The position numbers and the translations under genes were made by a program. Of a stretch of 36,863 nucleotides of DNA, positions 12,086 through 34,987 are shown one piece after another (position 1 is the stretch's first letter; the number at the start of each line of letters is the position of its first letter). Origin of the DNA: a bacterium (GTDB lineage Bacteria; Patescibacteriota; Gracilibacteria; BD1-5; UBA2023); assembly GCA_043778375.1 (NCBI GenBank), contig JAYWGH010000012.1:1-36863 (forward strand). Reading direction: 5' to 3'. The notes below the pieces were generated by a model. It did not search any database, had not been told where the DNA came from, and saw nothing but the letters and a program-made list of their open reading frames with translations.

Positions 12086-12117
12086 GAAATAGATTTACAA
12101 TAGGTATTGTACGAGAT

Positions 12118-13637: not shown

Positions 13638-15425
13638 CTAAAACCTGAGCTCAAAAACTTTCCCTCGACTATAAATAGTTTTTTTATCGAGTGAGACGAT
13701 TGCTGGAAATATCACATCACAAGATCGAGCATCAGCGGTAAATGCGAGATCTATCGCACACGGACAACTCGAGCAAGTAGCTCGTCCGTAGAGAGCTCAA
13801 ACATCTTTTGCATACCCAAGTCTACATGAGCCACCTACTCCTGGGAGAGTGAGAGTAGAATTCAGACTTCCAAGGCTCGAGATAACTGACCTTGTCGCTG
13901 TATTTGTAGGTGGAATATAGACCGTTACGTTCGGACAGCCCTTATTGTCTTTGAGTCCAAACACAGCCGGGCAGAGATCATCTCGGTTGAGCACTCCATC
14001 TCCATCAAGATCAGCGTTCTCGTCAAATACTAGTACAACTGAGGCAATAGAAGTTGCTCACTTTGAATCTCTTACCGTCAGGGTCACAGGCCTCACTCCC
14101 CCTGTCTCATAGAGGTGGCTTGGATTTGGATCAGTACTAAAAGATCCATCCGCAAAGTCCCATCGGTAGGTATACGGCCCTGTTCCTCCGTTAATCTGAC
14201 TACTAAGGTTTACTGTAGAGGGCGCAGTCGTGGAGAGTACATTCGCACGGATTTGTACTGAGAGTCCCTGAAGTGATCCGGTAGGCACAGGTGTACCATC
14301 ACGTACTTCAACTGAGGCAAGAGAGGTACTTGTTACTCAGGTCGCCGGGTCTCGTACCGTAAGTCTCACGAGCCATGTTCCATTCCCAGAGAGTGCAAAA
14401 TTAGATAGACATGCTCCCGTACCCGAAAGTCTCGTCCCATCCTGCGCTCTTGCAAACTCCCATGAGTAGATATATGGACCCCCTATTGTCTCCGTACGCC
14501 CAAAAAAAGTATAACTCGCAGCACTCGCGGAAGTGAAGTTACTTACAGGAGTACTTGTACTACAGCTTGCTCACGCATCGAGTATCCGTACTTCAGAGGT
14601 GAGACTTGATGGAGATTGATTATTTGGAGGATTCGATCCCGTATTTGGACTTGTAGGAGTTTGAGTGTTTGAGGAAGGTTGAGAAGAATTTGTAGTAGAG
14701 GAAGGAGAATTTGAATTTTGCCCGTCTGCCGATCGTAAGCTACACATATTTATCCGAAATATTTTTGCTGCCATCTGCACGAACTCCCGCTTGGAGATAT
14801 TTTCATTTGGCCTGATTTTGCCATCACTCGGAAGTGTGATCATACCAGACTGTACAGCCTTTTGCGCATATCCATACCAACTATCAGTTGCATCCGCTAT
14901 AGTTAGCGTACGTGCAAAATTTGCTGTGTTCCGAGCATTATCCCATAGACCTGCTTGACGGAGTAATACCGCAGCTGCCTCAATGCGGGTAATTTTATTG
15001 TTCGCACAAAATGGAGTAGCAGTATACGACTCACCATTCTCACATTTTGAGCTCCCATCTGGTCCTATTACGTACCCCTCAACAATCCCCTGCTCTTTTG
15101 CGTAGGACACACAATAAAAATTGGGATTTGCCCTTGCAAAATCTACAAAGGGGAGTGAGTTATACTTAATAATATCATCAAAAGTCGGCGATAAGCACTT
15201 TTTACATCCGACTCAGACAACTATAGAAACAAAGTCATCACGATTGATGAGGCTCGTAGGATTAAATCTCTTATTTGGTGAATCAGGGATTACTCCACGC
15301 TCATAGAGTGATACAAGATCTCCATAGTAGTCATCGCTCGGACTCACATCAGTAAATGGGAGATCAGCCGCAAACGCAGGTATACTCACAAAAAATACGA
15401 GGAGGGCGAGGAAAACTCGTTTCAT
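13638..15425 (-). CDS. secreted cell-surface protein (595 aa): signal peptide, SLH repeats, S/T/P/N-rich linker, two PKD-like domains, TSP3-like Ca-binding repeat, Cys-rich tail
   Basis: Track ORFs 15213..15425, 14571..15110, 14058..14288 and 13797..13994 are all one frame joined through in-frame TGA, ending at TAG 13638. I checked the gaps for TAA/TAG and found none. It contains MKRVFLALLVFFVSIPAFA, SLH-like FTDVSPSDDYYGDLVSLYERGVI, the linker NSNSPSSTTNSSQPSSNTQTPTSPNTGSNPPNNQSPSS, PKD-like GGTGPYTYRWDFADGS, and DGDGVLNRDDLCP. Confidence 0.8.
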
Positions 15426-15431
15426 GCAGAG

Positions 15432-15460
15432 AGTATAGTGGAAAAATCAACTAAAGGCAA
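15432..15460 (-). promoter_or_regulatory. promoter abutting the surface-protein ATG (leaderless geometry)
   Basis: The minus sense reads TTGCCT (15455-15460), a 17-nt spacer, TATACT (15432-15437), 6 nt, then ATG (15423-15425). Confidence 0.45.
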
Positions 15461-15490
15461 ACCCTTGGAAGATTACTAAAGATTGAAGGT

Positions 15491-16903
15491 TTAATTCTTT
15501 CAAAGCCGATACTCCACAACCGCCCCAAAATCGAGCTCCTCTGGTCCCGCGATCAAGTCTTCATACGAGATCTCATCATACTCATCGATCTCAGGCGCTT
15601 GGATCTCACGGCGGACTATCAGGGTGTCGTCCTCCATTTGCATCACATACCCGAGGAACTCTTGCCCCTGAGCTGCAAGAGCATTTGCAGCGTACACTTC
15701 ATCCAGGATTACACTGAGTTTTTTTAATCGCGCACGAGCTGTATCCTCGTCTACTTTCTGATCGAGCTTAGAGCTCGCAGCCATTGGCTCATCATGATAC
15801 TGGAATACTCCCACACTCTCAAACCGAGACTCTCGCGCAAATGCACAGAGCTCCTCAAAATCTGCCTCACTCTCCCCGGGGAATCCTACTATAAAGCTCG
15901 TGCGAATAAACGATCCGGGGGAATTGGACCGGATAAACTCCATGAGCCTCGCAATATGCGCCTGATCATAAAATCTCCCCATTCTCTTGAGCACATTCGC
16001 ACTATAGTGTTGAAATGGGATATCAAAATACGGGATAAACTTTGTGAGCTTGGTGAGTCGTTCGAGATGAGCAAAAGTGAGTGTATCAGGGTAAAGATAA
16101 AAAAGCCTGAATCTAAAATCCCCTGTTATCGCCTCAAGTCGCTCAAGCAGCTCAAAAAGTCGTGGCTCGCCATAGAGATCTGTCCCATAGCGAGTCGTAT
16201 CCTGACAGATGATCTCGATCTCACGAATCCCTGAGTTCACCATTACTGTCGCCTCTGCTACAATATCCTCGATCTCCCGAGAAGTCTGGCGACCTCGAAT
16301 CTTTGGGATGATACAAAATGTACAGTTATTATCACACCCCTCCGCGATCTTGAGGTACTCATATCCAAATGGTGCATGGATATACGCTCGCACTTCGTCT
16401 CCCTTCCAGATAAACGCCTTTTTACTGAGCTGAGATCCTCCAATAGACTCGAGGTACTCGCGGAGCTTCCCTTCTTTAAGACTTGCAAGTCCCCCTTCTT
16501 TAAGGCGCTTAAGAGCATGAGCATTAACTCGCCCCTTGACCTCTTCACCGAGGAGAAGGCGCTCGATCGCTGCATAGTCGGTAAATGGGAGGATTGCGTG
16601 CAAGTGCTTGAGGGAGGCGAGAAAAGCGTCATCCTTGACCGATACATAACATCCCATGAGGATGACTTTTTTACCGAGATCATCAAAATGCTTGAGGGTC
16701 TCTTCTGACTCCTCACGAGCCGACGAGAGAAATCCACAGGTATTTACGAGTACATACTCGACCTCGCTATCCTCAGGAGTATCAAAATACTGGATATCGA
16801 GCTTGTCCGCAAACTTAAGAATTTGCCCAACTGCAAACTCGAGGTCTACGAGATTTTTGGAACAACCGAGATTGACGGATGAAAAATGAAAAGATGGAGC
16901 CAT
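15491..16903 (-). CDS. rimO: ribosomal protein S12 methylthiotransferase RimO (radical SAM MTTase)
   Basis: N-terminal VNLGCSKNLVDLE (RimO-type), the radical-SAM CDNNCTFC motif and a C-terminal TRAM-like region. The track stop at 15500-15502 is TGA, so under table 25 the frame ends three codons later at TAA 15491-15493. Confidence 0.85.
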
Positions 16904-16955
16904 GAAATTGTTTTGACTCTATATATCCGAAAAGGGGCAAAAGTCACGGGGAGAT

Positions 16956-16981
16956 ACAAAAAATCTCCCGAAGAGGGAGAT
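16956..16981 (-). terminator. rho-independent terminator after the 16991..17413 gene
   Basis: The minus RNA reads AUCUCCC-UCUUC-GGGAGAU followed by UUUUUGU. The hairpin begins 10 nt after TAA 16991-16993. Confidence 0.65.
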
Positions 16982-16990
16982 GGGTGAGAG

Positions 16991-17413
16991 TTATTTTTGT
17001 ATAGCTGGGGGCATATACTGAACTTTGATATTTGTGTAATTTATATTCGTTGGAATGGTGTTAACTCATCTATTTGGGAGAGATAAATCTTTAGTGAAAA
17101 ATTCTGAGTGTCAGCCTACTACTTTTGTACAACGCAAACGTACTTGATGACTCAGGCTATTAAGAGAAGGGGTGGTCTTTATGTTACAATTCATTTTATC
17201 ATAGCCTTTAAGCTCAAATGCCTGGCCAGAATTCTTACCTAGGAGATCGTTTGTGAGCTCACTGGATATGATATTTAGTACATGATCTCTAGCGCCAGGA
17301 GAACTCAAGCCGTTACTCATAAGAAGCCTACCTTCAGAGGGTATATCTTTTGCTCCTACTGAACCCGCTACCAAGCTCGCTGCGAGACCAAGACCGATAA
17401 TAGTATTATTCAT
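16991..17413 (-). CDS. small secreted hypothetical protein (140 aa)
   Basis: Track ORF 17111..17413 is extended through TGA at 17111 and 17066 to TAA 16991. It has a signal-peptide-like MNNTIIGLGLAASLVAGSVGA. Confidence 0.5.
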
Positions 17414-17453
17414 AAAAAAAGTATGAGGAATCTATACATTTATACTTTGCAAA

Positions 17454-18452
17454 CTACATTAGTCAATATTTTTGTATCATTCCCCTCACCCACTCTCCCA
17501 AACTCGAGCCCGCAGCTGAGAGTTGCGCGGGGATAAAGCTCGTCTGCGTGAGCCCTGGTATAGTATTGATCTCAAGCGCAACCAGCTCACCACTCGCCAT
17601 GAGAATCATATCAGTGCGTGACATATCCTCCGCCCCCATGAGCTCATGTGTGCGTAGTGCGAGACGCTGAATAGACTCCGTCATCTCTAGATCAATGAGC
17701 GCTGGGGTAATCTCTCTGCACACTCCCGGTGTATACTTTGCCTCGTAGTCAAATAACTCCCCTTGGGTCAAGATAATCTCCGTCGGGGGCAAGGCTCGGA
17801 CTTGTCCATCCAAAAACACCACTCCACAGGTGAACTCGCGCCCTACGATACACTCCTGTAGGAGGATTTCACCGAACTCAGTGAGCCTATTTCTGAGCGC
17901 AGACTCGAGCTCAGCACGAGAGGTCACCTTTGTGAGTCATATACTTGAGCCCTCATGACGAGGCTTGAGGATCATAGGATATCCAAGTGCAGACTCCGCA
18001 TGAGTGCAAAGTTCAGAGATATTACTCGCCTGATCTACGAGGAGAGTCCTCGGAGTTCGTACACCATGGAGTCCGAGATATTTGCCCGCTTCGTACTTAT
18101 CATTTGCGAGTTTCATAACTTCTGCGGGTGAAAAAACACTCGCTATGCCCGCCGAGTCGAGAAGAGTTCGGAGAGTTCCATCTTCTCAAAATTCACCATG
18201 AATAATCCCAAATACGAGAGAATCCTGAATCCTTGGGATTAGCTCACTCCAGATATACCCAGTACCGAGCCCGTCCGTATAAGTCGTACCGTCCGTTTGA
18301 TATGAGGTCACTGAGTATCCACTCCCAACGAGCGAAAGCTCGAGAGCTACGGCTGATCTCAGAGATACTGCCCGCTCAGACCCTGGCCCACCAGTGATGA
18401 TGGTAATATTACTCAAAGCTCGAAGGTTTGAGGAGTGGGAAAAGTATGACAT
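17454..18452 (-). CDS. ddl: D-alanine--D-alanine ligase
   Basis: Track ORFs 18186..18452 and 17463..17927 are one frame joined through TGA at 18186 (IIHGEF-TGA-EDGTL, family GEDG), 17937 and 17463, ending at TAG 17454. The ATP-grasp C-terminus reads LEINTIPGLTQTSFIP. The start at 18452 overlaps the lysS end by 44 nt and is less certain. Confidence 0.85.
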
Positions 18453-20016
18453 CTCGGAGATTTTTCTGACGCGTGATGAGCGCCAGAAATCTATCTATTC
18501 CAAATCCGAGGCCTGATTGACATGGCATCCCATGCTCCATAGCTCTCACAAAGTCATAGTCTGCAGAGGTTGCCTCTTCGTCTCCCGCCTCGATAGCGCG
18601 AGATTGTTCCTCAAACCGCTCTCGCTGATCGATAGGATCGACGAGCTCGCTGTACGACTTGATAACTTCCCACCCATTGATCACTACCTGAAACTGCTCA
18701 ACGATACTCGTGTCTGCGTCGCTCGAACGCGCAAGAGGCTGCATAAACTTTGGATAGTTGTAGAGAATTGCTGGACCCGTGATGAGGGGGCGCACTTTTT
18801 TCTTGTAGAGATAGTCGATCATGACCGCGAGTGAGAGCTTATCGAGATCTGGGATCTCTACCCCGGTCGCTCGGATCGCTCCTCGCATCTCGGACTCTTG
18901 CCCAGGAGCATATTCGCGGATATTAATCCCTGTTTTCTCGAGTATCCTCTGCGCGTAGTCAATACGCTCCCAGGTAGTTGCAAAGTCTACATCTCGGACG
19001 ATTCACTCTTTGTCCTCGATCTGGATCACACTCGGGAGCTCAAGTCTCGTGAGGAGTGTACGGATCATACGCTCGATGAATTCCATATTATCGAGGTAGC
19101 TCCAATACACCGCATAGTGCTCAACCATCGTAAACTCCTGCAGGTGAGATGGGTCAGAGCCCTCGTTTCGAAAGTCTTTTGCAATCTCAAAAACTCGCTC
19201 AAACCGTCCAACGGTCGCCATCTTGAGAGACGTCTCAGGCGAGATGCGCAAAAATACATCCGTATCGTAGTCATTGTGATGTGTTGAGAATGGCTTTGCT
19301 GCAGCTCCAGACGCAGAGTTTCCGAGGATGGGGGTCTCGATCTCGATAAATCCTTCTTCCTCGTAAAAGTCTCGAAGTGCCTTGAGAAATCGCGATCGCA
19401 AGAGAAACCTCGCATAAGTATCTTCATTGGAGATGAGGTCGAGGTATCGCTGACGATAGAGTGCCTCGACATCAGACATTCAGGACCATTTCTCTGGGAG
19501 TGGACGGAGCGCCTTCGTAAGAGGGGTGAACTCCTCCACGAATACGGTGAGCTCTCACTTTTGCGTATAAAATGGTTCACCTGATACCCCGATGAAGTCC
19601 CCGAGATCGAGCATCTTCTCTGCGTACTTAAACGCTGAGTAGCCATCTGGATATGCCTTTGGATCAGCCTCGAGAGTAGAGCGCGAGTTCCCCTGAGCGT
19701 CCGTGATCAAACACCTCTTTTTGGAGAACATGAGCTGTATCTCCCCCGTCGCGTCCTGGAGCTTAGCAAATATAAGGCCCCCCATAGAACGTTTGAGAAT
19801 CACACGCCCTGCTATACGGACACTCGGTGCTGACTGCTCGAGAATCGCCTCAAGATGCCGTGGCTCAGTCTTTGCGACTTGTACTATCACACTCGCGTTC
19901 GTATGTGTACGATCAAATCTCTGCGCAAAAGAAGCAAGTCCCATGGCTCGCATAGTGTTTACTTTGCCAGCTCGAGTCTCAAACTCATTTGCTGGATTGA
20001 TAATATGGTCAGTCAT
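18409..20016 (-). CDS. lysS: lysyl-tRNA synthetase, class II
   Basis: Track ORFs 19555..20016, 19003..19479 and 18409..18888 are one frame joined through TGA at 19555 (FYTQK-TGA-ELTVF), 19480 and 19003. Class II motifs are FIEIETPIL, FRNEG and GLGFGIDRF. The stop is TAA. Confidence 0.92.
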
Positions 20017-22053: not shown

Positions 22054-22800
22054 ATGAATACGCCAAAGGTCAATACTCCACGAACTCAAGAAGATAAGGG
22101 AGCAGCACTCGCACTCATTTCTGCAGCTGTAGAGACTCAGAAGGCTCTTTTAATTCTTGCAAAAAAGATTTCTACAATTGCAACTCCTACTAAAGAGTTA
22201 CCTCCTCCAAATTACAGCGAAACTATCGACACTGCGCTTAAACTCGATCAAGAAATCAAATATTTTTTCAATTGGACTCATTCTTTCAGAACTCTACTCT
22301 CGGGTGCAGACGAATCTGAAGTAGATACAAAGACTCTACTCATAGACCAATGATTTAATGATTATCTCGCAGAATTCTCAGAGTTATCAAAAGTTCTCGA
22401 CATATTCACCATTAGTATTTTTGCGAGTATGGAGCGCAAGGAAATACCGAGTGATCTCAGTAATCGTGAAAATACTGTCTGTCACGATATATGTGCTATT
22501 AATTTTGGTACTTCGATATCAAAACTTATCGACTTACAAAAGCTTATAAACGCACGAGAAAAGCTCGATAGAGAAAGTCCGGTGAATAATATCAGCTCGT
22601 TCCGCAGATTAATAAGTAAGTGAGTTACAGCAATGAAGAGAGACTCTGCTGAAAACTGGAGGATGATTTGATATAGATGGATACAAGAGCTCACTGAAGT
22701 CGAGCTAGCACTCGAGGCAGTACGGATACACAAAGATCATCTTGATAATAAATGTTCGGGACCTACCAGGCATGTCGTATATTCACTCCTTCTCAATTAG
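22054..22800 (+). CDS. hypothetical protein A (248 aa), AT-rich orphan
   Basis: Track ORFs 21961..22353 and 22429..22623 share a frame. Reading TGA at 22351, 22621 and 22666 as Gly gives one ORF from ATG 22054 to TAG 22798-22800. The GTG at 21961 was rejected because it lies 6 nt from the divergent lepA start. No family was recognised. Confidence 0.5.
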
Positions 22801-22803
22801 ACT

Positions 22804-23097
22804 ATGAAAAATGCTTTCCGTGAAAAAGTACAGACTCTAGCCACTCAAACCTCAGAGCTTCTCAAGAGAGCAAAAGCACTCGATAGTATGCTCGATCCAC
22901 ACCTCGATGATGAATCAGCAGACAATGAAATTGCAGTAATAACTTGTGGGGTAAATGAACTTGAAAACTCTCCAAAAGTTGAAATCACATCATCTACAGA
23001 CACTCCTATATATAGAGAAGACTCGAGAAAGGCTAGGAGTACTTATTGCGACTACAGATCTACGCCGAATACGAATAAATTTAGCAGTTACCTTTAG
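22804..23097 (+). CDS. hypothetical protein B (97 aa)
   Basis: Its ATG lies 4 nt after the stop of A, and it ends at TAG 23095-23097. The last ~50 aa are low-complexity and overlap ORF C in another frame. Confidence 0.35.
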   Translation: MKNAFREKVQTLATQTSELLKRAKALDSMLDPHLDDESADNEIAVITCGVNELENSPKVEITSSTDTPIYREDSRKARSTYCDYRSTPNTNKFSSYL

Positions 23098-23236
23098 GAA
23101 AAATAATTATTCAGGGGTAGCACTTTGGTTTGATAATTTTACCCATCACACTCAGATCGGAATTCTCGATACTCTTATAGGCGATCTACGTAAAACCATA
23201 GCTGCACGACACTTAGCGATTTGAGTTAAAAATTAA
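22955..23236 (+). CDS. hypothetical protein C (93 aa)
   Basis: ATG 22955 follows an in-frame TAA directly. The frame reads through TGA 23222 to TAA 23234-23236. The sequence looks helical and globular (..LGVLIATTDLRRIRINLAVTF..GILDTLIGDLRKTIAARHLAI). It overlaps B by 143 nt in the +1 frame. Confidence 0.4.
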
Positions 23237-24459
23237 CCTATCTCCCCCCGCACCCCCGCCACAAACTCTCCCACCGGAAAGTCACTCACAAACGAGCGTT
23301 TAAACGGTATTTGAAATGACGGCAGCCAGAAAGAGTGTTTCCAAATATTCCCGGCAAGTCGCCCATTTGGAAGATGTGCAAAGGCACACTCCCAAGCCCC
23401 CCACCGGTAACTCCGAGGTACAGCTCCTGCGAGAAGTGGCCCCCATACCGCATGATTTCCAAACGTAAACACACTCACCGAGTTGGTGTGTGAGCGCATC
23501 ATATTAATCCCACCACCATCTATTCCCATCACAAACTGATAACCTGCGGCATGGTCTGAAAGCTCGGCAAAACTAAAAGCCCTCTCTACAAATATAACAT
23601 TTTTGGGGAGGTTGGTCTCGAGCTTGAGAGCCCCTATGATGGCAAACTCATCCGCATCGTGGATGTGTATCTCTTGTTCTGGGAATACTCTCGCAAACTC
23701 CCTGGCAAGACGAGACCAGACGGTGACCTCAAAGTTGCGAAACTCCTTCGCACCGACAAACAGAAGAATATTTTTGGGGGTGACATCAGGGTACTCTGGG
23801 TAAAATCTCGTCACTTGTGAGTACACATATGAACGGAGATCAGGTAGACTCAAAAAGTCAGAAAATGCTTGTATCTGCGCCTCAACGAGCTGTGTCCCTG
23901 CACTCCCTGCAAATCTCTCAGAAGTCGTCGCGTCAAACAAAAATGAAAATGGTCCTCGGTTTGAGCTCATCCAATATGCGTTATGATACTCGCTAAACTC
24001 CCCGATCATCATCTCATTCACACTATCTACGAGATCTACAAAAGCCACTCGCGAGCGCATTCGCCCAAGTATCCTCGGTGTAAACATCACGAGAGACCGC
24101 ACACACATGCACAGTGTCCGATAAATAGACCTCGTGTAGGCGTACCGCTCTGCCGTCGAGCTCATGATCACCTCTACTCCCTGCATCGACCCAAAGGGCT
24201 CGAGGATAGCATGGTTGAGGCTCGAGGAGAGTATTCGCACACTCCCCTGCCACCCGTGCGAACGGAGATGATCGACCAAACACTCAAAAAATGGCCTCGA
24301 GATCACCGCGTCTCCAATACGATCCGCACGATTGATCACAAGGAGATCAATGTCCTCGAGAGTGATCGATTTACTCACGCGGACAAGGAGTCTCAGTTTC
24401 CCAAAAAGTGTCCAGATCGTATCGAGCACTTTGTAGGCGAGGATTTGAAGGTAGACCAT
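23233..24459 (-). CDS. GT9-like glycosyltransferase, paralog 1 (408 aa)
   Basis: ATG 24457-24459 lies 1 nt after the stop of the upstream GT4. It has an N-terminal LLVINRADRIGDAVISRPFF (compare GT9 iGDvv..tP) and a C-terminal VMGIDGGGINMMRS (compare GT9 NDSGpmHlA). It contains no in-frame TGA and is GC-rich. It is clearly paralogous to 32153..33388. Confidence 0.6.
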   Translation of the reverse strand: MVYLQILAYKVLDTIWTLFGKLRLLVRVSKSITLEDIDLLVINRADRIGDAVISRPFFECLVDHLRSHGWQGSVRILSSSLNHAILEPFGSMQGVEVIMSSTAERYAYTRSIYRTLCMCVRSLVMFTPRILGRMRSRVAFVDLVDSVNEMMIGEFSEYHNAYWMSSNRGPFSFLFDATTSERFAGSAGTQLVEAQIQAFSDFLSLPDLRSYVYSQVTRFYPEYPDVTPKNILLFVGAKEFRNFEVTVWSRLAREFARVFPEQEIHIHDADEFAIIGALKLETNLPKNVIFVERAFSFAELSDHAAGYQFVMGIDGGGINMMRSHTNSVSVFTFGNHAVWGPLLAGAVPRSYRWGAWECAFAHLPNGRLAGNIWKHSFWLPSFQIPFKRSFVSDFPVGEFVAGVRGEIG

Positions 24460-24460
24460 A

Positions 24461-25579
24461 CTAAATAAACTCAGATAAACGCTTTGTGCACTCGGTGAGG
24501 GAGAATTTCTGCCCCTGACGGATACACCCATCCCGCAAAGTGCTCACATACTCAGGAGTCATCTCCCTCACAGCTCGGGCGAGCTCCTCAGGAGTACATT
24601 CAGGTGGGAGCATGATCCCAGTCTCGGGACTCTGCATCGACTCGAGAAATCCACCCTCCGCGACCGTGATCATTGGAACTCCCGAGATGAGCGCCTCGAT
24701 CGTATTGAGTCCAAAATCTTCATTTCTGGAAATATATATCCCAGCAATTGCCCGACGCGTATAGAGCGCGACCTGCGAGTTATCCTCGAGTACCTTGAAC
24801 TCAATATTTGGAGCTCCATCAGCGAGTGCTCGAAACTCGTCTTTCTGAGGATCGTTTGCCCCATGGAGGAGGAGGAGTTTGTGATCAGGAAGCGGCTTAA
24901 AGGCTCGGATCACCGTATCTACGCGCTTTGCGTGTGCGAGTCGTGCTGTCGAGAGATAGTAGTTACCACGAGACTCACTCGGCTCCAGAGGATAGAACTC
25001 TCTCGCGTCGACTGGTGGATAGAGTACCTCAACAGTGATACCTGGGGCGAGAGTCCGCAGAGTAACCGCGTTTTGCTCGGAGTTTGCGAGGATCAAATGC
25101 ATACTCCTGAGATCCCAGAGATACCAAGCCCGAAGCGCCGTGAGCATCACTCCCGCAAAAGGTCGTGCATACCAGGATATTTTTGCAAGATATTGATCTC
25201 GCTGATCAAACAGATGTCGCGAAATACTATGTGCGTAGTAGACTCTGCGAGCACGGGGTGCCCAGAGTCTCGCACTGATAGCCTCATTTGAAAATATCAC
25301 CGTATCGTAGCCCCGCAGTACAGAGGCTCTCAGCAAAAACGAGAGCTTCATACCGATAAATCCCACTATCCCCCGCTGAAATCTCGGGTAAAGTGCCGTC
25401 ATCTGACCTTCAAAACCCATAACTCTTGGGTCAAAGCTCGCCTCTGAGAATACTGAGCTCACGAGATCTGCACCGAGATACATTGCTATCTGTATATTCA
25501 TCCGCTCCGCACCTCCACGCACAAAAAAACTATCATGCACGATAGCGTATCTTTTGCTTGGTATTTTAAGATCATTCAT
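24461..25579 (-). CDS. GT4-family glycosyltransferase (372 aa)
   Basis: GT-B fold with an EX7E-type motif (NEDFGLNTIEALISGVP). Intact ORF ending in TAG, with no in-frame TGA. Confidence 0.75.
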   Translation of the reverse strand: MNDLKIPSKRYAIVHDSFFVRGGAERMNIQIAMYLGADLVSSVFSEASFDPRVMGFEGQMTALYPRFQRGIVGFIGMKLSFLLRASVLRGYDTVIFSNEAISARLWAPRARRVYYAHSISRHLFDQRDQYLAKISWYARPFAGVMLTALRAWYLWDLRSMHLILANSEQNAVTLRTLAPGITVEVLYPPVDAREFYPLEPSESRGNYYLSTARLAHAKRVDTVIRAFKPLPDHKLLLLHGANDPQKDEFRALADGAPNIEFKVLEDNSQVALYTRRAIAGIYISRNEDFGLNTIEALISGVPMITVAEGGFLESMQSPETGIMLPPECTPEELARAVREMTPEYVSTLRDGCIRQGQKFSLTECTKRLSEFI

Positions 25580-25619
25580 ATACTGGACACATCGTAGTGA
25601 TCATCTCCAAATAGTAAAG

Positions 25620-26810
25620 ATGTCTAAAAAGACTCCCGCTGTCCAACCAGTAAATTCACTCCCCAAGAATACAAAAGTCGCCATTATTATGGACTGGCTG
25701 AAGGATTGGGGAGGAGCTGAACAGGTATTTTTTGATATACTCGAGATCTATCCAGACGCTCATATCTATACGAGCACCTTTGATTCCGTGAGATTCCCGA
25801 GCCTTTTCGGGCGTGTACGGGAGAGTTTTCTCGGGCGAATACCCTTCGTACGCAGTCACCCCAAGATGTTTCCATTTTTACGACCCTACGCATTTGAGTC
25901 GCTCGATCTGCGAGAGTACGACATTGTTATCTCGAGCTCGAGTGCTGAGTCCAAATGAGTCATCACCCTTCCAAATACTCTCCATGTGTGCTACTGCCAT
26001 AGCCCCACCAAGTACTACTGGCACAACTCTCACGCATACCTCGAGCATCCTGAGTTCGGATTTTGGAATCCTATTGCACGATTCCTGATGCCGTATTTTT
26101 TTCATAAAATGCGTATCTGGGACCTCACTGCCAGCACACGGGTTGATAGATTTATCGCGAACTCAGAGCATGTAGCAGCTCGCATCGCCAAGTACTATCG
26201 CAGATCATCTACGGTTATATGCCCGGGAATCGACGAAAAATTTTATACTCTAGGAGATGAGTCACAAAGAGGAGACTTCTATCTCGCAGTGGGACGCATG
26301 ATCCCATACAAGCGGTTTGACCTCCTTGTCGCGGCCTTTAATCAGAATGGACTCCCTCTTGTGATCGTCACCAGTACTCGCACTCGACTCACTCGAGAGC
26401 TCATGGCAATCTCGCGACCAAATATTACTTGGTGCCTCGATATATCCCACGAAGAAAAGCTCTCCTACATGCAGCGTGCTCGAGCTTTTATGTTCCCACA
26501 AGAAGAGGACTTTGGCATGGTACCGATCGAGGCTATGCTCTGTGGCACACCAGTAATCACCTTTGCTCGCGGAGGAGCTCTCGAAACTGTTACAGATAAA
26601 GTAAGTGGCGTATTTTTTGACGAGCAAACTGCTGAGAGTATTGCCTGAGCAATCACTCAGTTTGAGTTACTTACTTTTACACCAAAAACTGTGCGTAATG
26701 TAGCTCTCCAGTTTACTCGAGCGAGCTTTCAGGACAAAATGCGTACCTACATCGCAAAAGAATTCGAAAAAATGAAAAAGTCTCCTACACTATTTCATAT
26801 AAACCCCTAG
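25620..26810 (+). CDS. GT4-family glycosyltransferase (396 aa)
   Basis: Track ORFs 25554..25958 and 25986..26648 are one frame joined through TGA at 25956 and 26646, ending at TAG 26808-26810. It contains QEEDFGMVPIEAMLCGTPVI. I preferred ATG 25620 to the track start, which would overlap the divergent gene. Confidence 0.75.
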
Positions 26811-26813
26811 CCT

Positions 26814-28637
26814 ATGTGTGGCATCTTTGGATATATCGGAAATGCCGAGAGCATCTGAGCAGAATCCATCATTCTCACTGGTCTTGCAAAGCTTGAGTAC
26901 CGAGGCTATGACTCGGCTGGCATGGTAGTATTTTCCTCGCTCACCGGGTGCGACCAGTTTAAGGCAATTGGACATATACAAAGCCTCACCTCACTGGTAA
27001 ATGAGTCCAAAGATCCCCTCAAAAAATACAGATCTTGAATAGGGCATACGCGGTGGGCAACCCATGGACGGGTTACCCTCGAAAATACTCACCCCCACAC
27101 CGACGCAAAAAAAGAATATTTTGTCGTACACAACGGTATCATCGAGAATCATGCAAAACTCAGAGCTACCCTCAAAAAACAGACTTTTTATGGAGAGACG
27201 GACACTGAGGTAGTAGCAAAGCTCCTGGCAGAAACTCCTGGCGAGACACTCATAGCCCGAGTACAAACTATTGTCCCAAAACTCCATGGATCTTTTGCCC
27301 TCGTCATCATGGCAGCACAAGACCCGAGTGAGATGATCGGGATCAAAAAGTGAGGTCCTCTCATACTCGGTCGTAGTAAAAATGGTACATTTTATCTCGT
27401 GTCTGACGCAAATGCGATCAGTGGACTCGTCGAGAGTGTTGTATACCTTGAGGATGGAGACATTGTCCATATACAAAACGGGAAGTACACCATCGAAAGT
27501 CTCGGAGATCCCATAGTGCGCCCTCTCATAAAGCTTGCACATCATGCAAATTCGAGCGAAAAATGAAAATTTGAGCATTTTATGCTCAAGGAAATCTACG
27601 AGGCCCCCGAGGTCCTCACAAATGTTTTTCAGGGGCGAGTAAATTTTATCGATGGGACGATCGCAGCTGACGCGTTTCTCGATATCAGAGAGCTCCCATT
27701 TGAACGGGTAGAGTTTATAGCGTGTGGTACCTCATATCATGCTGGACTCCTTGGGAGTTACTGGATCGAGGAGCTATCGGATCTCGATACGGGGGTGACA
27801 ATTGCGAGTGAGTTTTTTAGTCGTACTCCGAGAGTGAGCTCGACTACCCTGTTTGTGTTTATATCTCAGTCCTGAGAAACTGCCGACGCAATCGAGCCAC
27901 TCAAGTGGCTGAGAGATCAGGGGGCTCATACTTTTGGGGTGGTCAATACTGTTGGCTCAACTATTGCGAGATTGACTGAGAGTGGGATTTTTACTCGAGC
28001 AGGTATAGAGGTAGGTGTAGCCTCTACAAAAGCCTATATTGGACAGATCTGAGCGCTCCTCATTATGAGCTTATTTTTTAGTATTCAGTCCTGAGCCGAC
28101 TACAAGGTATACCGAGAAATCCTCGCTGGCATCGAGGAGCTCTCACTCCTGGCAGATAGTGTGCTTGAGAGTACCCATGATATCAAAAAAGTCGCTCACG
28201 CACTCGCAGGATTTGAGCATATGTTCTTTTTGGGTCGAGGCCCATCATACGCTATAGCACTGGAGGCTGCTCTCAAGTTTAAGGAGATTACTTACATACA
28301 CGCTCACGCATCACCTCTCGGTGAGCTCAAGCATGGCCCACTCGCGCTCATTGATCCGAGGTGTCCTTGTGTCGTATTTCTCCCTGATGGGGCTGGTTTT
28401 GAGCAGGGGCTTGTATCTATTTCTGAGATCCAAGCGCGATCTGGACGAGTATGTGTCGTGTCTCAAAGTCCTGTCCCGGGTGCTGACTGGAATATCATTC
28501 TTCCAAAGTGTCATCCAGTATTTTTTGGATTCCTTGCCGCTATAGCAGGACAACTCCTCGCCTATCATGCCGCACATATCCTCGGACGAGAGATCGACAA
28601 ACCACGCAATCTCGCGAAGAGTGTAACGGTGCGGTAA
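26814..28637 (+). CDS. glmS: glutamine--fructose-6-phosphate aminotransferase
   Basis: The frame starts MCGIFGY at ATG 26814 and is open to TAA 28635-28637 through TGA at 26856, 27036, 27351, 27564, 27873, 28050 and 28092. The TGAs sit on conserved Gly columns (S-TGA-IGHTRWATHG; ISQS-TGA-ETADA; EK-TGA-KFEHFMLKEI). It ends ..NLAKSVTVR. The track shows only 27582..27875 and 28161..28637. Confidence 0.95.
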
Positions 28638-29134
28638 TGATACGAGCACTGTTTTTTGACCGCGATAATACACTCACTCTTGATCACGGATTCACCTTTA
28701 AGGTTGAGGATCTTGTTCTCCTGCCATGAGCTCACGATATCATCTCCTACGCAAAATCTCAGAGTCTCCTCATTTTTCTCATTACCAATCAGTCAGGGAT
28801 TGGTCGGGGCATGTATGGTCTCGCGCAAGCAGAGGAGTTTAATAAGGCTCTTGAAGTGACGCTCGGGATACAGTTTGATGGTATAGGAATATGTCCTCAC
28901 CTCGAGTCTGATATATGTACTTGCCGTAAACCTGCAACCTGACTAGTCACTCCGTTCATGCAAGAGTACAGTCTCACTCCTGATGAGTGTATATTCATAG
29001 GCGACAAGGAGATTGATGTGGAGTGTGGACTCGCTCTCGGCATGCGAACCGCAAGGATAACTCGAGCAGACACTCTCACAAATGCACACTTTCAGATTGC
29101 AAGTATCGCAGAGTTGACTAGTCTCCTTGAGTAA
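28637..29134 (+). CDS. gmhB: D-glycero-D-manno-heptose 1,7-bisphosphate phosphatase-like HAD-IIIA phosphatase
   Basis: Its ATG overlaps the glmS stop (TAATG). Motifs are FFDRDNTL, TNQSGIGRG, CPHLESDICTCRKPAT-TGA-L (family CRKP.pG) and IGDKEIDVECG. The frame reads through TGA at 28727 and 28940 and ends at TAA 29132-29134. Confidence 0.8.
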
Positions 29135-29135
29135 T

Positions 29136-30263
29136 ATGATCATTTCACTCATACGATTCATTGACGTTTGGATTCTGCGAGGAGTCCTTTTTCTCCTCCC
29201 AGTATCAAATATAAACACTCCACCGAGCTCCCCAAAGTGTATACTATTTATACGCCTATGGGGCATGGGGTCTGCAGTTCTGAGCCTTCCTCTCCTACAA
29301 AAACTCAGGAGCCTCTATCCTGAGGCTCGAATAGATATTCTCGTAACTCCAAATACTCGAGGTATTTTCACTCGCACTTCACTCGTAAATGGGGCTGTTA
29401 TCAATCTCTTTTCTCTGCAGGGTCTTTGACAAATTTTTCGAGCATTCAGGACATACGATCTCGTAATTGATACTGAGGAGTATTTTAGTGTCTCTTCGCT
29501 CGTGACCTTCTACTGCGGCAAATATCGTATTGGCTTTGACACCATGATCTCTCGAAAAAACGCATATCATAGAGCAACCGCATTCAATGCGATGCAACAC
29601 TTCTCAGATACCTACCTAGATCTCCTGCGGCTCAATACTGATGTGCATTTGCCTCTGGTAGAGAAACTCATCCCAATAGAATTTTCTCATGTTGCCAGAA
29701 ATACAGTTGAAGAATATATCCAGAGTCTCCCAACTCATACTCATATAATCGGCATACATCCGGGTGGCTCGACTACTGCGCCTGAGAGATTTTGGTCGAC
29801 TGCCCACTGGGTCTTTCTATGTATAGGTTTAATGGTCAAATACCCAAATACACTCATTCTCATGACTGGTACAAAGCTCGAGAAAGTAGCCCATACAGAT
29901 ATTTTGAATGCGCTCGAACACCAAGAGAGGGTGGTATCAACTATCGGTAGCATCCCTACAGACCTTGGTACTTTTGCAGCACTTCTCACTCATATGGACG
30001 CTTATATATCTAATGACTCAGGTCCAATGCATCTCGCTTGAGCTATGAGGACCCCAACTATTGGTCTTTTTGGTCCCAATCTCCCAGTACGATATGAGCC
30101 TCTCCCAAGGGACAAATGCATATGACTTTATAAAGGAAATTGAGTCCCTACTATTGATCCTCATAGAGGTGTATTTCAGCGCGATACAGAGTGACTCGTA
30201 AATAGAATTTCTCCGAGTGAAGTCTGCAAGCAAGTACAGAAAATTTTTTCAGAGAAATTTTAA
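29136..30263 (+). CDS. GT9-family glycosyltransferase (heptosyltransferase-like, 375 aa)
   Basis: ATG 29136 lies 2 nt after the gmhB stop. Track ORFs 29127..29429 and 29502..30041 are one frame extended through five TGAs to TAA 30261-30263. It contains LWGMGSAVLSLPLLQKLRSLYPEARIDILV and SNDSGPMHLA-TGA-AMRTPTIGLFGP. Confidence 0.8.
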
Positions 30264-31135
30264 TTCTTACGGAAAGACCAATTATCTTTTTCTATTTGGA
30301 TCCCAGAGAATCCGAGAGTTTCGAGGTATTTTACCGTCTCGATATGGGCAGGATTATTTTCAAAAATCTCAACGATCAAATCTACTCAGTCACCAAGTTC
30401 TCTCAGAAATTTTTCCATTCATCTGAGCACAGGAAGCTCGTATCCTTCAACATCTATAAGAATCATGCACACATCGTCTGCTTTGTATGCATGTACTATA
30501 GAATCATATGGCTTTACTGGTATTGATATTTTATGCGCAAGATGGGTATAATCGTCTGGAAACTGGGTAACTCTACTCCCACCATCATGTGAGTCAAAGT
30601 ACTCAAATGCTACCTCTCACACGTGATCGGAGAGTCCCATATTTATGAGTGTTACATTATTTTCAACACCTGAGAGAATAGTATTTACTTGTAACATCTT
30701 AAATGTCTCTGGGCTCGGCTCAAAGGCGACTGAGTGATACCCATAATTTTTCGCGAGTTCTATCACATAGCGGCCAACATGACTCCCTATATCGATAAAT
30801 ATTTTGTTCTTTTTACTCTGAAATCTCGCAATATTTGCGTCTATCACTATTCGAATTTCCTCCTCATATCCTGGTTGAGTGATCATCCAAGCATTCCGCG
30901 TATGAGCAAGATAGGTTCCCCAAGGGGTGGTAAAAAGTATAGCTTTGTTACAGAATTTATATACCCAGTGACTAAAAGTTACTAGTGCTCCTCATAAAAT
31001 TACGTTTACGATAGTAACAGCCTCTGTAAGAAAGAATCTCCACATCATATCGATTGAATGAGTACTCATCCAGTAGTGACGAGTGAGTCTAAGAATCCAA
31101 CGTGAATATCGAAGGACTCGATTTAAAAAATTCAT
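30260..31135 (-). CDS. FkbM-family SAM-dependent methyltransferase, copy 1 (291 aa)
   Basis: ATG 31133-31135 to TAA 30260-30262, through TGA at 30992, 30617, 30419 and 30386. The core reads FIDIGSHVGRYVIELAKNYGYHSVAFEPSPETFKMLQ (FkbM-type SAM motif). It is collinear with copy 2, gap-free. Confidence 0.8.
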
Positions 31136-31272
31136 AAGTACTTTAATGATAGGTGGATAGTATGAACAAGCTTGCTGATGTCAAAATTCCAAAAGGAATT
31201 GTAGTTCTAATTTCTCGTTCTTACTTGCTCTCTATGATTGAGAGATACTTAGAAAGTAGACTAAAAAAATGC

Positions 31273-32148
31273 TTAATTCTTTTTGAAAGACCAGTTTTCT
31301 CTATTGATCTGAAAGGCACTGAAGCCTAGACTCACTACAAAATCGATAGTCTCCTCACGAGCCGGATTGCTCTCAAATATTTCTACAATCATATCTGTTT
31401 CTGATGAGAGTTCTCTAAGAAACTTTTTCATACCCCTGAGTGCGTAAAGTTCATATCCCTCTACATCTACTAATATCAGCTTCACATCAGTTGTCTTGTA
31501 TGTGCGACTCAGTGAATCAAACGGCACTACAGGGATAGATAATTTCTGAGCAAGCTTTGTAAGCTCTGCTTCAAACTGGATAACTCGACTTGATCCGTCG
31601 TATGAATCACAATATTCAAAATTTACCTCTCATACATGATCGGATAGGCCTCTATTTATGAGTGTTACATTATCTTCAACACCTGAAAGAATAGTATTCA
31701 CTTGTAACATCTTAAATGTCTCTGGGCTTGGTTCAAATGCTACCGAGTGATATCCATAGTTCTTTGAAAGCTCAATAACATATCGCCCGACATGACTCCC
31801 TATATCTATAAAAACTTTATTTTTATCATTTTCAAACCTGGCAATATTTGCGTCAATAATAGAACGTATCTCTTCCTCATAATTAGGCTGAGTAACTGTC
31901 CAGGCATCTGCAGTATGAGCAAGATAGGTTCCCCAAGAAGTTGTAAAAAGTATAGGTTTGTTACAAAATTTATATACTCGGTGTTTGATACTTACATCGA
32001 TACCTCGAAAAAGGAAGCTCAAGACTGAGATAGTCTCATTCAGGAGAAATCTCCACATCATATCAATAGATCTTGTGCTTCCCCAGTAGTGTTTAAGGCG
32101 TATAAGAAAATCTTTTGAGTAGCGAGCAGCACGTTTAAAAAAATTCAT
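31273..32148 (-). CDS. FkbM-family SAM-dependent methyltransferase, copy 2 (291 aa)
   Basis: Track ORFs 31630..32220 and 31273..31527 are one frame through TGA 31630. The start was set to ATG 32146-32148 (MNFFKRAARYSKD) by homology with copy 1 (MNFLNRVLRYSRW). The stop is TAA. Confidence 0.8.
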
Positions 32149-32152
32149 ATAA

Positions 32153-33388
32153 CTATAATAAGTCTTTGATGCTATGAACAAGACTATCAATGTCAAAGTT
32201 CTCAAAAAAAGATTTCTCAAGTTCTACCTCAAAACTCGGAAGAAAAAAAGATTTTTTACTCAAATATTTCGACTTATGTGAGTAGCCTTTCCTATATCAT
32301 ATATACCAGTTATTTCAGATAGAATTCTCAACTACTTCTCCATCACTATAAGATGACCATACCCGTGCATCTCCCGTAGTATAAATAGTAAATGAGGGTA
32401 CATTCATACGTAGAATATTCATTCATCCACCGTCTATTCCCACTAAGCATTTTTGAGTGGAAATAAACTTTATAAGTTCAGTAAGTTTTTGAGAGATGTC
32501 TTTTATCACAACATTTTTCGGAAAGTTTATATAAATTAGCTCTTTCACAATTTCTCCATCTGGATCATCGATAACAGTTATAAGCTCATTTGGGAAGTAT
32601 ATAGATATTTTAGTAATTATCTCTGCCCAAAAAACTGCTGTAAAATTACGGTAGGGCTTAACACCTACAAAAATAGTAATTCCAAAATAAGTTTCCGATT
32701 CTCAGAGAGATAGGAGTTTCAGAGAATAGTTTGTATCTATCTTTTTAGCAATTGCTACTCATTCTATAAATACTTTCTGTAAGAGAAGATTATAGCTCGA
32801 AATGATATTGATCCCATCTACTGTATAAAATTTTGAATAGCCATTATCTATAATTCAGGAGCTTAGAGCAAGATTCGGCCCAAAAATCCGCATAGAAGCA
32901 TCATCTAAGAGTAACCTCGCAATTGTAGTTGGATCGCTTACTAGATCCAAGAACGCCACATTCCCCCGTGGGAGGCGTTTGTAGACTAATTTAAAAGTTC
33001 TTAAAAAACTTCTAAATCCATTAATAAGATGTTGAGAAGGTTGAATCACATAAGAATTGAGATCTTTTTGAATCATCTTGACCTCCACATTCTCATATTT
33101 TGAAAGTGGTTCTAAAATCCAATAATTTAATTGAGAACTCAAAATCTCAATTGAACCAATAAATCAATGTTCATTAAGATAGAAAATAAGTGACTCTATC
33201 CAGATATAACTTATAACAGCATCCCCCATACGATCACTTCGATTGATGATAATTTTATCAATATTCAGTACAGAAATCTTGCGAGTATCTTTGAACAGAA
33301 AAAAACATTTTCCTATAAACTGAGCTATTAAAGCAAGGAGATAAATAGAAAAGATCTGTATTCGAACACGGAAAAATTTATAGTTCAT
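32153..33388 (-). CDS. GT9-like glycosyltransferase, paralog 2 (411 aa)
   Basis: Track ORFs 33164..33412 and 32855..33142 plus an untracked 700 nt form one frame through TGA at 33164, 32855, 32759, 32702, 32423, 32315 and 32297, ending at TAG 32153-32155. It aligns with paralog 1 (IIINRSDRMGDAVIS vs LVINRADRIGDAVIS; LVGIDGG-TGA-MNILR vs VMGIDGGGINMMR; FFLPSFE vs FWLPSFQ). ATG 33386-33388 overlaps the upstream stop as TAATG. Confidence 0.65.
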
Positions 33389-34101
33389 TACCCCCCAAAT
33401 AATTTCCTCCAAATCATCCGACTCGCTATCCGCAGTGGCCCTCAGTGTCGTTGTCCCTTAGCGAGAGTATATTCATCGTAAGTGATGTTCACTGGCACTT
33501 CGGCAAAAGTGAGACCATGAATCCTCACCTGTTCAATGAGCTCGCTCGCATACTCCATCCCATCCATTGTGAGTTCAAGATGTACTAGGGATTTCACTGC
33601 GATCATGCGATACCCATTGTGGGAGTCAGTGAGTTTTATCCCTGAGATCATCCAAGTAAACATCGTCCCTCCCCAGAGGATGATGCGTCGTCCGAGTGGT
33701 ACATTGGACGCAGTCTTGGTGATAAATCTCGAGCCAAGGACCATGTCGAGTTTTGGATTTGCCTCAAAAGCATGGATAAACTCTACCATATCCAAAACTG
33801 AGTGCTGGCCATCCGCATCAAAAGTCACGATATAATCAATACCAAGAGTGGTCGCATTTCGCCTCACAAACTCAAATCCTGTCTCAAGAGCCGCTCCACC
33901 TCCACGATTGTGAGCATGGCTGAGAACTATGGTATTTGGGTAGGATTGAGCAATTCTGAGTGTATTATCTCTTGACCCATCGTCTACAATCAAAATTTTG
34001 GTAAATCCAGCCCCAGTGATACTCTCGATCACACTTCAAATACGCGTTGCCTCATTGTAAGCGCGTATGAGAAAGAGGATTTGACTGAACTTTATTTTCA
34101 T
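33388..34101 (-). CDS. GT2-family glycosyltransferase (polyprenol-phosphate sugar transferase-like, 237 aa)
   Basis: ATG 34099-34101 (MKIKFSQILFLIRAYNEATRI-TGA-S..). Motifs are IVDDGSRDNT, TFDADGQH and DSHNGYR. The track stop 33442 is TGA, so the frame continues 17 codons to TAA 33388-33390. Confidence 0.8.
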
Positions 34102-34439
34102 GACGGTGGATTTTGGCGAGACTCGAGGAGGGCTACCTCTCGGATGAGACGAGTGATGTCTTCTTTATTTTTTTCGGTTTTGTCGAGGAGGAGGAGAACA
34201 AAGTAAAATAAGAAAATAATACCTGCATATACGAGTACATCAGCCCCTCTCGGAAGTCCAAATATATGCCCAACGAAATCCCTCAAAAATGGAAAAATAC
34301 TAAATATGAGGAGACCCATACCCACTCAGATGAATACCAAAAAGTGGAGCGCGTTAAATTTTTGACGACGAGATATGTCGAATGCCAGGATAAATATAAT
34401 ACATCCTGAGAGGATGAAGAGCGCGTCGAGGAGGGTCAT
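34092..34439 (-). CDS. DUF2304-like small membrane protein (115 aa)
   Basis: ATG 34437-34439 to TAA 34092-34094, through TGA at 34329 and 34098. It has three or four hydrophobic helices, ISRRQKFNALHFLVF and LPRGADVLVY. In other bacteria this family is typically adjacent to GT2 genes. Confidence 0.6.
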
Positions 34440-34510
34440 AGTGACTATTTATGGAGTGTATATTATCCAGCCTCGCGCAATCCACCAAATAAAACTCTCA
34501 GAGTCGTGTT

Positions 34511-34987
34511 TTATACTGAGTAAGTGGTGAGAATCTTGCGAATCACGGCTGAGGTCGAATACTCTCCTACAATTGGATGAATCACAAACTTCCCGCCATA
34601 TGCAGCCACTATCGGATACTCTGGAAGGTCCTCGAGCTGATAGTCCCCTCCCTTGAGACAGAGATCAGGCTGGAGGGCAGCTATTGCGTCCACCGGTGTA
34701 TCTGTATCAAATACATAGACGTAATCTACACTCTGGAGCGCGAGGAGCATTCGAGCTCTAAAATCCTCTGAGTTTATCGGGCGCCCAGGCTTTGACGCAA
34801 AATATGGCGAGCTATCAGCATTAAGTCCTACTACTACAATATCACACTCGGATTTGAGGTACTCAAAGTTGGCGATATGCCCTGGATGCATGATGTCAAA
34901 ACATCTACCCGTCCAGCCGATAGACTGACCTTTGGTAGTGGCCTCTTGGCGGAGTGATTGGAGTTCGGCAGGAGTGGTGAGGAGCAT
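34511..34987 (-). CDS. hldC: D-beta-D-heptose 1-phosphate adenylyltransferase-like cytidylyltransferase (RfaE domain II / HldC type)
   Basis: It contains GRCFDIMHPGH (the nucleotidyltransferase HxGH motif), LNADSS, RPIN, VDYVYVFDTDTP, PDLCLKGGDY and YSTSAVIRKI. These are collinear with the C-terminal domain of E. coli HldE. It is 158 aa and ends in TAA. Confidence 0.8.
   Translation of the reverse strand: MLLTTPAELQSLRQEATTKGQSIGWTGRCFDIMHPGHIANFEYLKSECDIVVVGLNADSSPYFASKPGRPINSEDFRARMLLALQSVDYVYVFDTDTPVDAIAALQPDLCLKGGDYQLEDLPEYPIVAAYGGKFVIHPIVGEYSTSAVIRKILTTYSV

Follow-up and report, generated by a model that had tools for sequence, protein, structure and literature searches.

A heptose-type gene cluster in a code-25 Gracilibacterium and its probable role in a surface glycan other than lipopolysaccharide

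What would a bacterium build with enzymes of the heptose route if its lineage lacks the lipid A acceptor to which such sugars are attached in Gram-negative cells? This question is raised by 12 compactly arranged genes at 23233-34987 of a Gracilibacteria contig (JAYWGH010000012.1, assembly GCA_043778375.1), of which the whole stretch of 36,863 nucleotides (nt) was analysed and is called the window below. The locus has genes for GmhB and HldC, the enzymes of the final two steps of the ADP-heptose route, together with glycosyltransferases (GT) of family GT9 and of a divergent group related to it. The explanation favoured here, with moderate confidence, is that this is a native, lineage-conserved locus that helps to build a heptose-containing surface glycan other than lipopolysaccharide (LPS) in a monoderm code-25 bacterium. 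The glycan is probably O-methylated and assembled on a lipid carrier, through a GT9 subtype dedicated to it and a GT9-derived family that is new.

A heptose glycan distinct from LPS had been proposed in an earlier note, made from the sequence of the window. Every gene named there was recovered at its coordinates by open reading frame (ORF) analysis and by searches of Pfam and NCBIfam. The central proposal was largely supported by synteny, while the occurrence of heptose enzymes beyond LPS producers proved less unexpected than the note had implied (PMC11573728; PMC9166423). Gene coordinates are given as window positions, and the genes are numbered g01 to g12 from left to right. They form three operons with intra-operon gaps of -10 to +4 nt: g02 (GT4) followed by g01 on the minus strand; g03 (GT4), glmS, the gmhB-like g05 and the GT9 gene g06 on the plus strand; and, on the minus strand again, the hldC-like g12, a DUF2304 gene, a GT2 gene, g09 and two FkbM genes.

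Native origin and heptose loci of relatives

The ORF coverage of the window rose from 61% under table 11 to 91.5% when TGA was read as a sense codon. Of the seven TGA codons in GlmS, five aligned to glycine of the E. coli protein and none to tryptophan, the motifs SQSGETAD and GIAHTRWATHG being among the aligned sites, and the genetic code of the window is therefore 25 (TGA = Gly), as the earlier note had assumed. In one HldC relative from the databases, whose translation had taken TGA as tryptophan, W stood exactly at an otherwise invariant G. The host is most likely a code-25 Patescibacterium of the Gracilibacteria, and the same organism was found in two other assemblies. The window lies on a contig of 107,462 bp (ENA ERZ27314324, k141_272615).

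TGA-Gly codons were present in nine of the 12 cluster genes (e.g. seven in glmS, seven in g09 and five in g06), and the neighbours in the window and its flanks are housekeeping genes (ValRS, ThyX-like, NrdAB, RluD, LexA/NDK, MltG, GluRS, RimO, Ddl, LysRS, LepA and malic enzyme). For these two reasons the cluster is regarded as native and not as a chimeric contaminant. Assembly chimerism and recent import from a Gram-negative bacterium were both rejected on account of the same codons together with the synteny in relatives.

All relatives compared use code 25, as judged by ORF coverage. A GT9 gene of the g06 type lies directly or closely 3' of heptose genes in eight genomes, the window counted. 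The gene order is gmhB-gmhA-hldA-hldC-GT9 in locus L032, gmhB-hldD-gmhA-hldA-hldC-GT9 in L031 (where GT4-GT4-g01 family-GT9 follows), gmhA-hldA-hldC-GT9-GT9 in L030, gmhA-hldC-hldA-hldD-GT9-Wzx in L028 from the Absconditabacterales (with FkbM further on), hldA-gmhA-GT9-GT2-GT9-methyltransferase-GT4-GT2-Wzx in L023, and simply gmhB-GT9 in the window. The synteny comparison that the earlier note had suggested for metagenome-assembled genomes (MAGs) of Gracilibacteria thus disclosed complete ADP-heptose operons in code-25 relatives, ending in a g06-type GT9.

The two remaining loci correspond most directly to the window. L113 reads LepA, one further gene, g02, glmS, gmhA, hldA, GT9, FkbM and g09, and L114 reads g02/g03, glmS, manC, gmhA, hldA, GT9, FkbM, g09, GT2 and DUF2304, so that both are syntenic gene for gene; the LepA of L113 is 86% identical to that of the window, and the orthologues of g09 occupy the same position in both. 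The slot between glmS and GT9 is filled by gmhA-hldA in L113 and L114 and by gmhB in the window, where alone hldC stands at the end of the locus. The window and these two loci hold complementary halves of the heptose pathway. In L023, hldA-gmhA likewise occurs with neither gmhB nor hldC within 10 kb. Because L023, L113 and L114 show this complementary split, separated heptose genes are taken to be normal in the lineage.

The enzymes of the relatives scored above curated cutoffs: GmhA reached 221.6 bits (cutoff 209.45) and HldD, present in L031 and L028, 399 bits in L031 (cutoff 274.6), while HldA scored 250.7 bits against 79 for ribokinase. Beside the L032 operon lies a polyprenyl glycosylphosphotransferase of the WbaP-like type (TIGR03025, 319.7 bits, cutoff 295.55). 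Wzx flippases were found at the heptose loci of L028, L007 and L023. In L010, an ABC-2 exporter stands beside a g01-family gene and hldA-gmhA. Such neighbours are marks of glycan assembly on a polyprenyl-phosphate carrier, not on lipid A and 3-deoxy-D-manno-octulosonic acid (Kdo).

Two further observations were made at these loci. L032 contains a second heptose set (15421-19305, minus strand), which resembles the route to GDP-D-glycero-alpha-D-manno-heptose: besides a GmhA-like SIS protein and an SDR epimerase, it comprises an HddA-like GHMP kinase (180 bits) and a GmhB phosphatase to which an NTP-transferase is fused. In L010 (14214-18157) and L007 (4905-8812), pairs of large polytopic membrane proteins (559-760 amino acids) had no Pfam match; their candidate roles are those of a polymerase, ligase or oligosaccharyltransferase.

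Heptose enzymes and GT9-type transferases of the window

The product of g12 (34511..34987, minus strand) is an HldC-like heptose-1-phosphate adenylyltransferase. Its top match was rfaE_dom_II with 136.9 bits, which is under the cutoff of 181.5, and TagD reached 19.4 bits, so that a TagD identity was ruled out on scores. The best solved relative was PDB entry 5x9q (E 1e-25), which we take to be HldC of Burkholderia pseudomallei. Identity was 35-49% to HldC/HldE-II proteins of many phyla (among the matches listed) and 42-47% to the HldC genes within heptose operons of code-25 relatives. The grouping with RfaE domain II/HldC, as opposed to TagD, agrees with the earlier assignment. In the (F/L)xxGRSTT motif, arginine at the fifth position marks promiscuity for CDP- and UDP-heptose (Tang et al., commentary PMC11573728). 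Unlike those promiscuous enzymes, g12 and all code-25 HldCs carry tyrosine at this STTR5 position, and ADP-heptose is thus the expected product.

ORF g05 (28637..29134, plus strand), whose start overlaps the glmS stop by 1 nt, encodes a HAD-IIIA protein of the heptose-1,7-bisphosphate phosphatase (GmhB) type. GmhB (NF006506) was the best NCBIfam match (102.8 bits, under the cutoff of 178), and the HAD-IIIA model scored above its cutoff. The top three PDB matches were GmhB (72 bits), with HisB-N close behind (64 bits). A HisB-N identity was rejected mainly on genomic context, as orthologues of g05 lie inside gmhB-gmhA-hldA-hldC-GT9 operons of L031, L032 and L007; it is this context that settles the predicted assignment as GmhB.

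In the proposed pathway, GmhA and the HldA kinase would be encoded elsewhere in the genome and would convert sedoheptulose-7-phosphate to heptose-1,7-bisphosphate, the substrate of GmhB; we infer a complete ADP-heptose pathway for this organism. No HldD homologue was found in the window or its 10-kb flanks by table-25 six-frame search, and since HldD is absent from the locus, the heptose is probably of the D,D form. Matches in an HldA profile search of proteins all came from other samples; genes of the source assembly had been called with table 11, under which a kinase containing TGA codons would appear only as fragments. Among the closest named relatives of the code-25 stand-alone HldA kinases were kinases of Methanocaldococcus, Methanotorris and Methanococcus (37-40% identity), a similarity that hints at exchange of heptose genes between archaea and bacteria.

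The canonical GT9 gene, g06 (29136..30263, plus strand), passed PF01075 with 87.3 bits (cutoff 22). The equivalog models for LPS heptosyltransferases were all far under their cutoffs (68 bits versus 135-185), and identity to orthologues in code-25 relatives was 31-39% over the full length. These data suggest a GT9 subtype that is specific to code 25 and for which heptosyltransferase activity is predicted. The D261/G263/H266 donor motif of WaaC is intact in g06. For comparison, D13, K192 and D261 of WaaC are taken here to be catalytic or donor residues, Asp13 being the proposed catalytic base. At the position of G12-D13, g06 has Gly-Ser, as does the L023 orthologue (11503-12612), the sole orthologue in the alignment, whereas the other GT9s of the same genomes and the g01 family retain Gly-Asp.

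Genes g01 (23233..24459, minus strand, 408 amino acids) and g09 (32153..33388, minus strand, 411 amino acids, GC 32%) encode paralogs with 28% identity (E 1e-45). Neither matched a Pfam family (E <= 0.01, PF01075 included) or an NCBIfam model, and neither showed BLAST similarity to g06; for g01, a sequence search of PDB chains gave nothing either, so that its relationship emerged only from structure and profile-profile comparison. An AlphaFold (AF2) model of g01 showed a GT-B fold (pLDDT 86.6, pTM 0.88). The top nine PDB matches of this model in Foldseek were all GT9 proteins (the Veillonella GT9 3tov, WaaC and WaaF; E 1.5e-10 to 3.5e-8), and UDP-GlcNAc 2-epimerases formed the next class (2e-6). 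A GT9-like fold of g09 is predicted from its paralogy to g01.

When the g01 family was compared by hhalign with a GT9 alignment anchored on E. coli WaaC and WaaF, the probability was 90.8% over 332 columns. D50 was paired with WaaC D13, the invariant R241 with K192, the invariant D314 with D261, and N319 with H266; the family therefore has arginine in place of K192 and asparagine in place of H266. An exhaustive profile search gave 130 matches (E <= 1e-3) among 1.84 billion representatives. Some remote members pass PF01075 (P0183 with 25.4 bits, P0255 and P0261 with 39-48 bits), and one cluster, in Desantisbacteria, is named 'Glycosyltransferase family 9 protein'. Two fusions were also detected, namely of a GmhB-type phosphatase (140 bits to the GmhB model) with a g01-family protein (P0175, 584 amino acids, ENA) and of a Wzx-type flippase with a g01-family transferase (P0201, 820 amino acids, Logan). 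A gene of this family adjoins hldA-gmhA in L010 and the heptose operon in L031. From Foldseek, hhalign, the bridging sequences and the fusions, g01 and g09 are a small and very divergent offshoot of GT9, and the earlier description of both as GT9-like was upheld against other GT families.

Close members of the g01 family were limited to Gracilibacteria-type MAGs. A g02-like GT4 gene precedes the g01-family gene in 13 of 15 distinct Gracilibacteria loci, as does g02 itself (24461..25579, minus strand; PF00534, 62 bits) in the window, with a gap of 1 nt. In most Gracilibacteria genomes (L006, L008, L012-L022) the two genes form a stand-alone module, often near a prepilin-type (N_methyl) gene and GrpE. 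The GT4-g01 pair may therefore serve a core function for which the rest of the cluster is not needed.

Remaining cluster genes and the proposed glycan

The plus-strand operon starts with g03 (25620..26810), a GT4 gene (PF00534, 85 bits; PF13439) with 59% identity to its L114 orthologue. It is followed by g04 (26814..28637), encoding the glutamine-fructose-6-phosphate aminotransferase GlmS (full-length match to E. coli GlmS with E 7e-116), which is syntenic in L113 (64% identity) and L114 (55%). The two FkbM-family methyltransferase genes on the minus strand, g07 (30260..31135; TIGR01444, 90 bits) and g08 (31273..32148), are a tandem duplicate (68% amino acid and about 79% nucleotide identity). 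FkbM orthologues of g07 were found in L113, L114, L028 and L024.

The g07-g09 block (30260-33388) has a GC content of 32-38%, compared with 43-50% in the rest of the cluster, and contains TGA-Gly codons. A mobile island was considered for this block and is not supported, since no integrase and no repeats besides the FkbM duplication were found in it and since it is syntenic in L113 and L114. Both of the other assemblies of this organism break off within the FkbM copies, near window positions 30687 and 31750.

ORF g10 (33388..34101, minus strand; PF00535, 69 bits) encodes a GT2 protein of the putative polyprenyl-phosphate sugar synthase type, and g11 (34092..34439, minus strand; PF10066, 70.5 bits, above cutoff) its small DUF2304 membrane partner. 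The best NCBIfam match of g10 was PpgS, a polyprenyl-phospho-GalNAc synthase, with 160 bits against a cutoff of 370. It is 67% identical to its L114 orthologue. The reading frames of g10 and g11 share 10 nt, and in L024 their counterparts form a single DUF2304+GT2 fusion protein. The pair resembles that of mycobacterial PpgS with DUF2304 (Rv3631/Rv3632; NF058614) in that the GT2 and its small partner are translationally coupled. It differs in the low score of g10 and in that the window yielded no GT-C partner.

Taken together, the following model is proposed. GT9 g06, and probably also g01 and g09, would transfer heptose. The GT4 enzymes would add hexose or N-acetylhexosamine to an oligosaccharide linked to polyprenyl phosphate at the cytoplasmic face, with GlmS feeding UDP-GlcNAc, and the FkbM enzymes would O-methylate sugars. 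The GT2/DUF2304 pair may provide a monosaccharide bound to a lipid, with which the glycan would be decorated on the outer side of the membrane. Priming, flipping and attachment would be encoded outside the window; in relatives the predicted functions are a WbaP-like transferase and either Wzx or an ABC-2 exporter. Candidate final acceptors are an S-layer/SLH protein, a secondary wall polymer or a glycolipid, while the terms 'O-methyl-capped' for the glycan and S-layer or secondary cell-wall polymer for its acceptor are speculation.

Outside the cluster, the earlier note had pointed to an SLH-domain protein at 13638..15425 (minus strand), for which a signal peptide, two SLH repeats (PF00395, 55 bits), an S/T/P-rich linker and a PKD domain (PF18911, 65 bits) were indeed found. 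The linker (about residues 240-290) is rich in S, T, P and N, as are the regions of S-layer proteins that carry O-glycans, and is followed by a Cys-rich C-terminal region. This protein is a possible glycan acceptor or wall-polymer binder. Between LepA and g01 (22054-23097) lie two ORFs of low GC content (39%) with 248 and 97 amino acids, which had no Pfam match and are missing from the syntenic relatives. A possible mobile or SOS module was found about 7.4-9.8 kb to the left of the window (L005, 17890-20364); it consists of a DinB/UmuC-type polymerase (IMS), a UmuD/LexA-like S24 peptidase and a fragment of an integrase.

Alternative explanations and relation to known systems

Several results weigh against a heptose-containing glycan. 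The scores of GmhB and HldC lie below the NCBIfam equivalog cutoffs, GmhB is barely ahead of HisB-N in the PDB search, and g06 lacks an equivalent of Asp13. No match to GmhA or HldA was obtained at E <= 10 in a table-25 six-frame search of the window with 10 kb on each side (about 57 kb), which extends the absence noted earlier for the window and leaves the pathway incomplete as seen. Genes for a priming transferase, flippase, polymerase or ligase were also absent from the window. The GT4-g01 pair lies mostly far from heptose genes in other genomes, and for every transferase both donor and acceptor are assigned only from context. Moreover, a closed Gracilibacteria genome has no pentose-phosphate pathway, the source of sedoheptulose-7-phosphate (PMC6851277); parts of this pathway are encoded by other Gracilibacteria (PMC9166423, PMC11452946).

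Among the alternatives, a surface glycan without heptose is unlikely, although it draws on several of these points. According to this explanation gmhA and hldA would have disappeared, GmhB and HldC would be remnants or work on a different sugar phosphate, and a different nucleotide sugar would serve the GT9-type enzymes as donor. The CAZy family GT9 also includes a non-heptosyl activity, and the presence of gmhA-hldA in the corresponding slot of the syntenic relatives indicates that the arrangement in the window is derived. Against it, g05 and g12 are intact, tightly coupled to their neighbours and carry, or sit among, TGA-Gly codons. Their orthologues stand within complete heptose operons, and by the complementary split in L023, L113 and L114 divided loci are normal in the lineage.

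Salvage is clearly less probable. A likely epibiont or predator could import heptose-1,7-bisphosphate or heptose-1-phosphate from a Gram-negative host, in which case GmhB and HldC would suffice, and these last two steps are all that the visible 57 kb encode. Gracilibacteria can lack the pentose-phosphate pathway and rely on host metabolites (PMC6851277). In an extended form, held to be just as improbable, the organism would truly be without GmhA and the kinase, and would display host-like heptose through the GT9-derived family, possibly as molecular mimicry. Against salvage, the locus has no sugar-phosphate transporter, the full pathway is encoded by relatives, and loci with only gmhA-hldA (L113, L114) are not explicable by uptake of late intermediates; the idea itself is pure inference.

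It is very improbable that the cluster serves the classical LPS inner core of a diderm cell whose lipid A and Kdo genes lie elsewhere: GT9 with GmhB and HldC is the textbook inner-core toolkit and g06 matches the heptosyltransferase I/II/III models weakly, but these scores are far under cutoff, no lpx, kds, waaA or waaL gene was found in the window and its 10-kb flanks (in accordance with the earlier claim for the locus), the operon of relatives adjoins a polyprenyl-phosphate priming transferase and Wzx, the SLH proteins point to a wall-anchored S-layer, and a closed Gracilibacteria genome has neither a lipid A pathway nor PilQ and other outer-membrane markers (Sieber et al. 2019; PMC6851277). 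The same genome encodes many polysaccharide genes and proteins with S-layer domains (PMC6851277).

The preferred reading, a heptose-containing surface glycan made outside the LPS context, can also be set against known systems. With the LPS inner core (ADP-L-glycero-beta-D-manno-heptose and WaaC/WaaF/WaaQ) the locus shares the families GmhB, HldC and GT9, to which relatives add GmhA, HldA and HldD, and g06 keeps the GT-B fold and the D261/G263/H266-type motif. Differences from the inner core are the serine of g06 at D13, the absence of HldD from the window, the priming transferase, Wzx or ABC-2 exporter at the loci of relatives, and a host lineage that has no lipid A/Kdo acceptor system (PMC6851277).

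In the S-layer glycan of Aneurinibacillus thermoaerophilus and in Campylobacter capsules, heptose is supplied by the GDP-D-glycero-alpha-D-manno-heptose route (GmhA, HddA, GmhB, HddC). The present locus is similar to these systems in that heptose, here predicted from genes, would be part of a surface glycan other than LPS. Aneurinibacillus is, in addition, a monoderm host that bears an S-layer, comparable with the SLH proteins found here, and L032 also has a set resembling HddA and HddC-GmhB. In contrast to both systems, the branch found in the window and in its relatives is that of HldA/HldC (ADP-beta), and the transferases are of the GT9 type. S-layer glycans have been reviewed (PMC2943079).

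Enzymes of NDP-heptose synthesis occur widely outside the Gram-negative bacteria, mostly in roles not yet known (Tang et al., Science 2024; commentary PMC11573728). Like these enzymes, g12 is a monodomain heptose nucleotidyltransferase outside the classical LPS producers; its distinguishing feature is a place in a transferase-rich glycan locus, which suggests a role. Expression of hldE has been mentioned for ultra-small groundwater lineages (PMC9938205), and a literature search returned no paper on heptose loci in Gracilibacteria or Absconditabacteria. The enzyme families and their chemistry are known. New are the lineage in which they occur, the context outside LPS, the architecture of the locus and the divergent family of transferases.

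The textbook markers of an outer membrane, heptose and GT9, are found here in a conserved syntenic locus of code-25 Patescibacteria (Gracilibacteria and Absconditabacterales), whose cells are walled with peptidoglycan and lack a lipid A pathway. A small GT9-derived transferase family missed by the current Pfam and NCBIfam models has been defined, and a likely physiological role is indicated for widespread 'orphan' NDP-heptose enzymes. These results give a testable prediction on the nearly uncharted surface chemistry of uncultivated epibionts and predators. ADP-heptose is an agonist of innate immunity (ALPK1), and Gracilibacteria and Absconditabacteria inhabit the human mouth; for this reason, the heptose pathway could also matter for sensing by the host.

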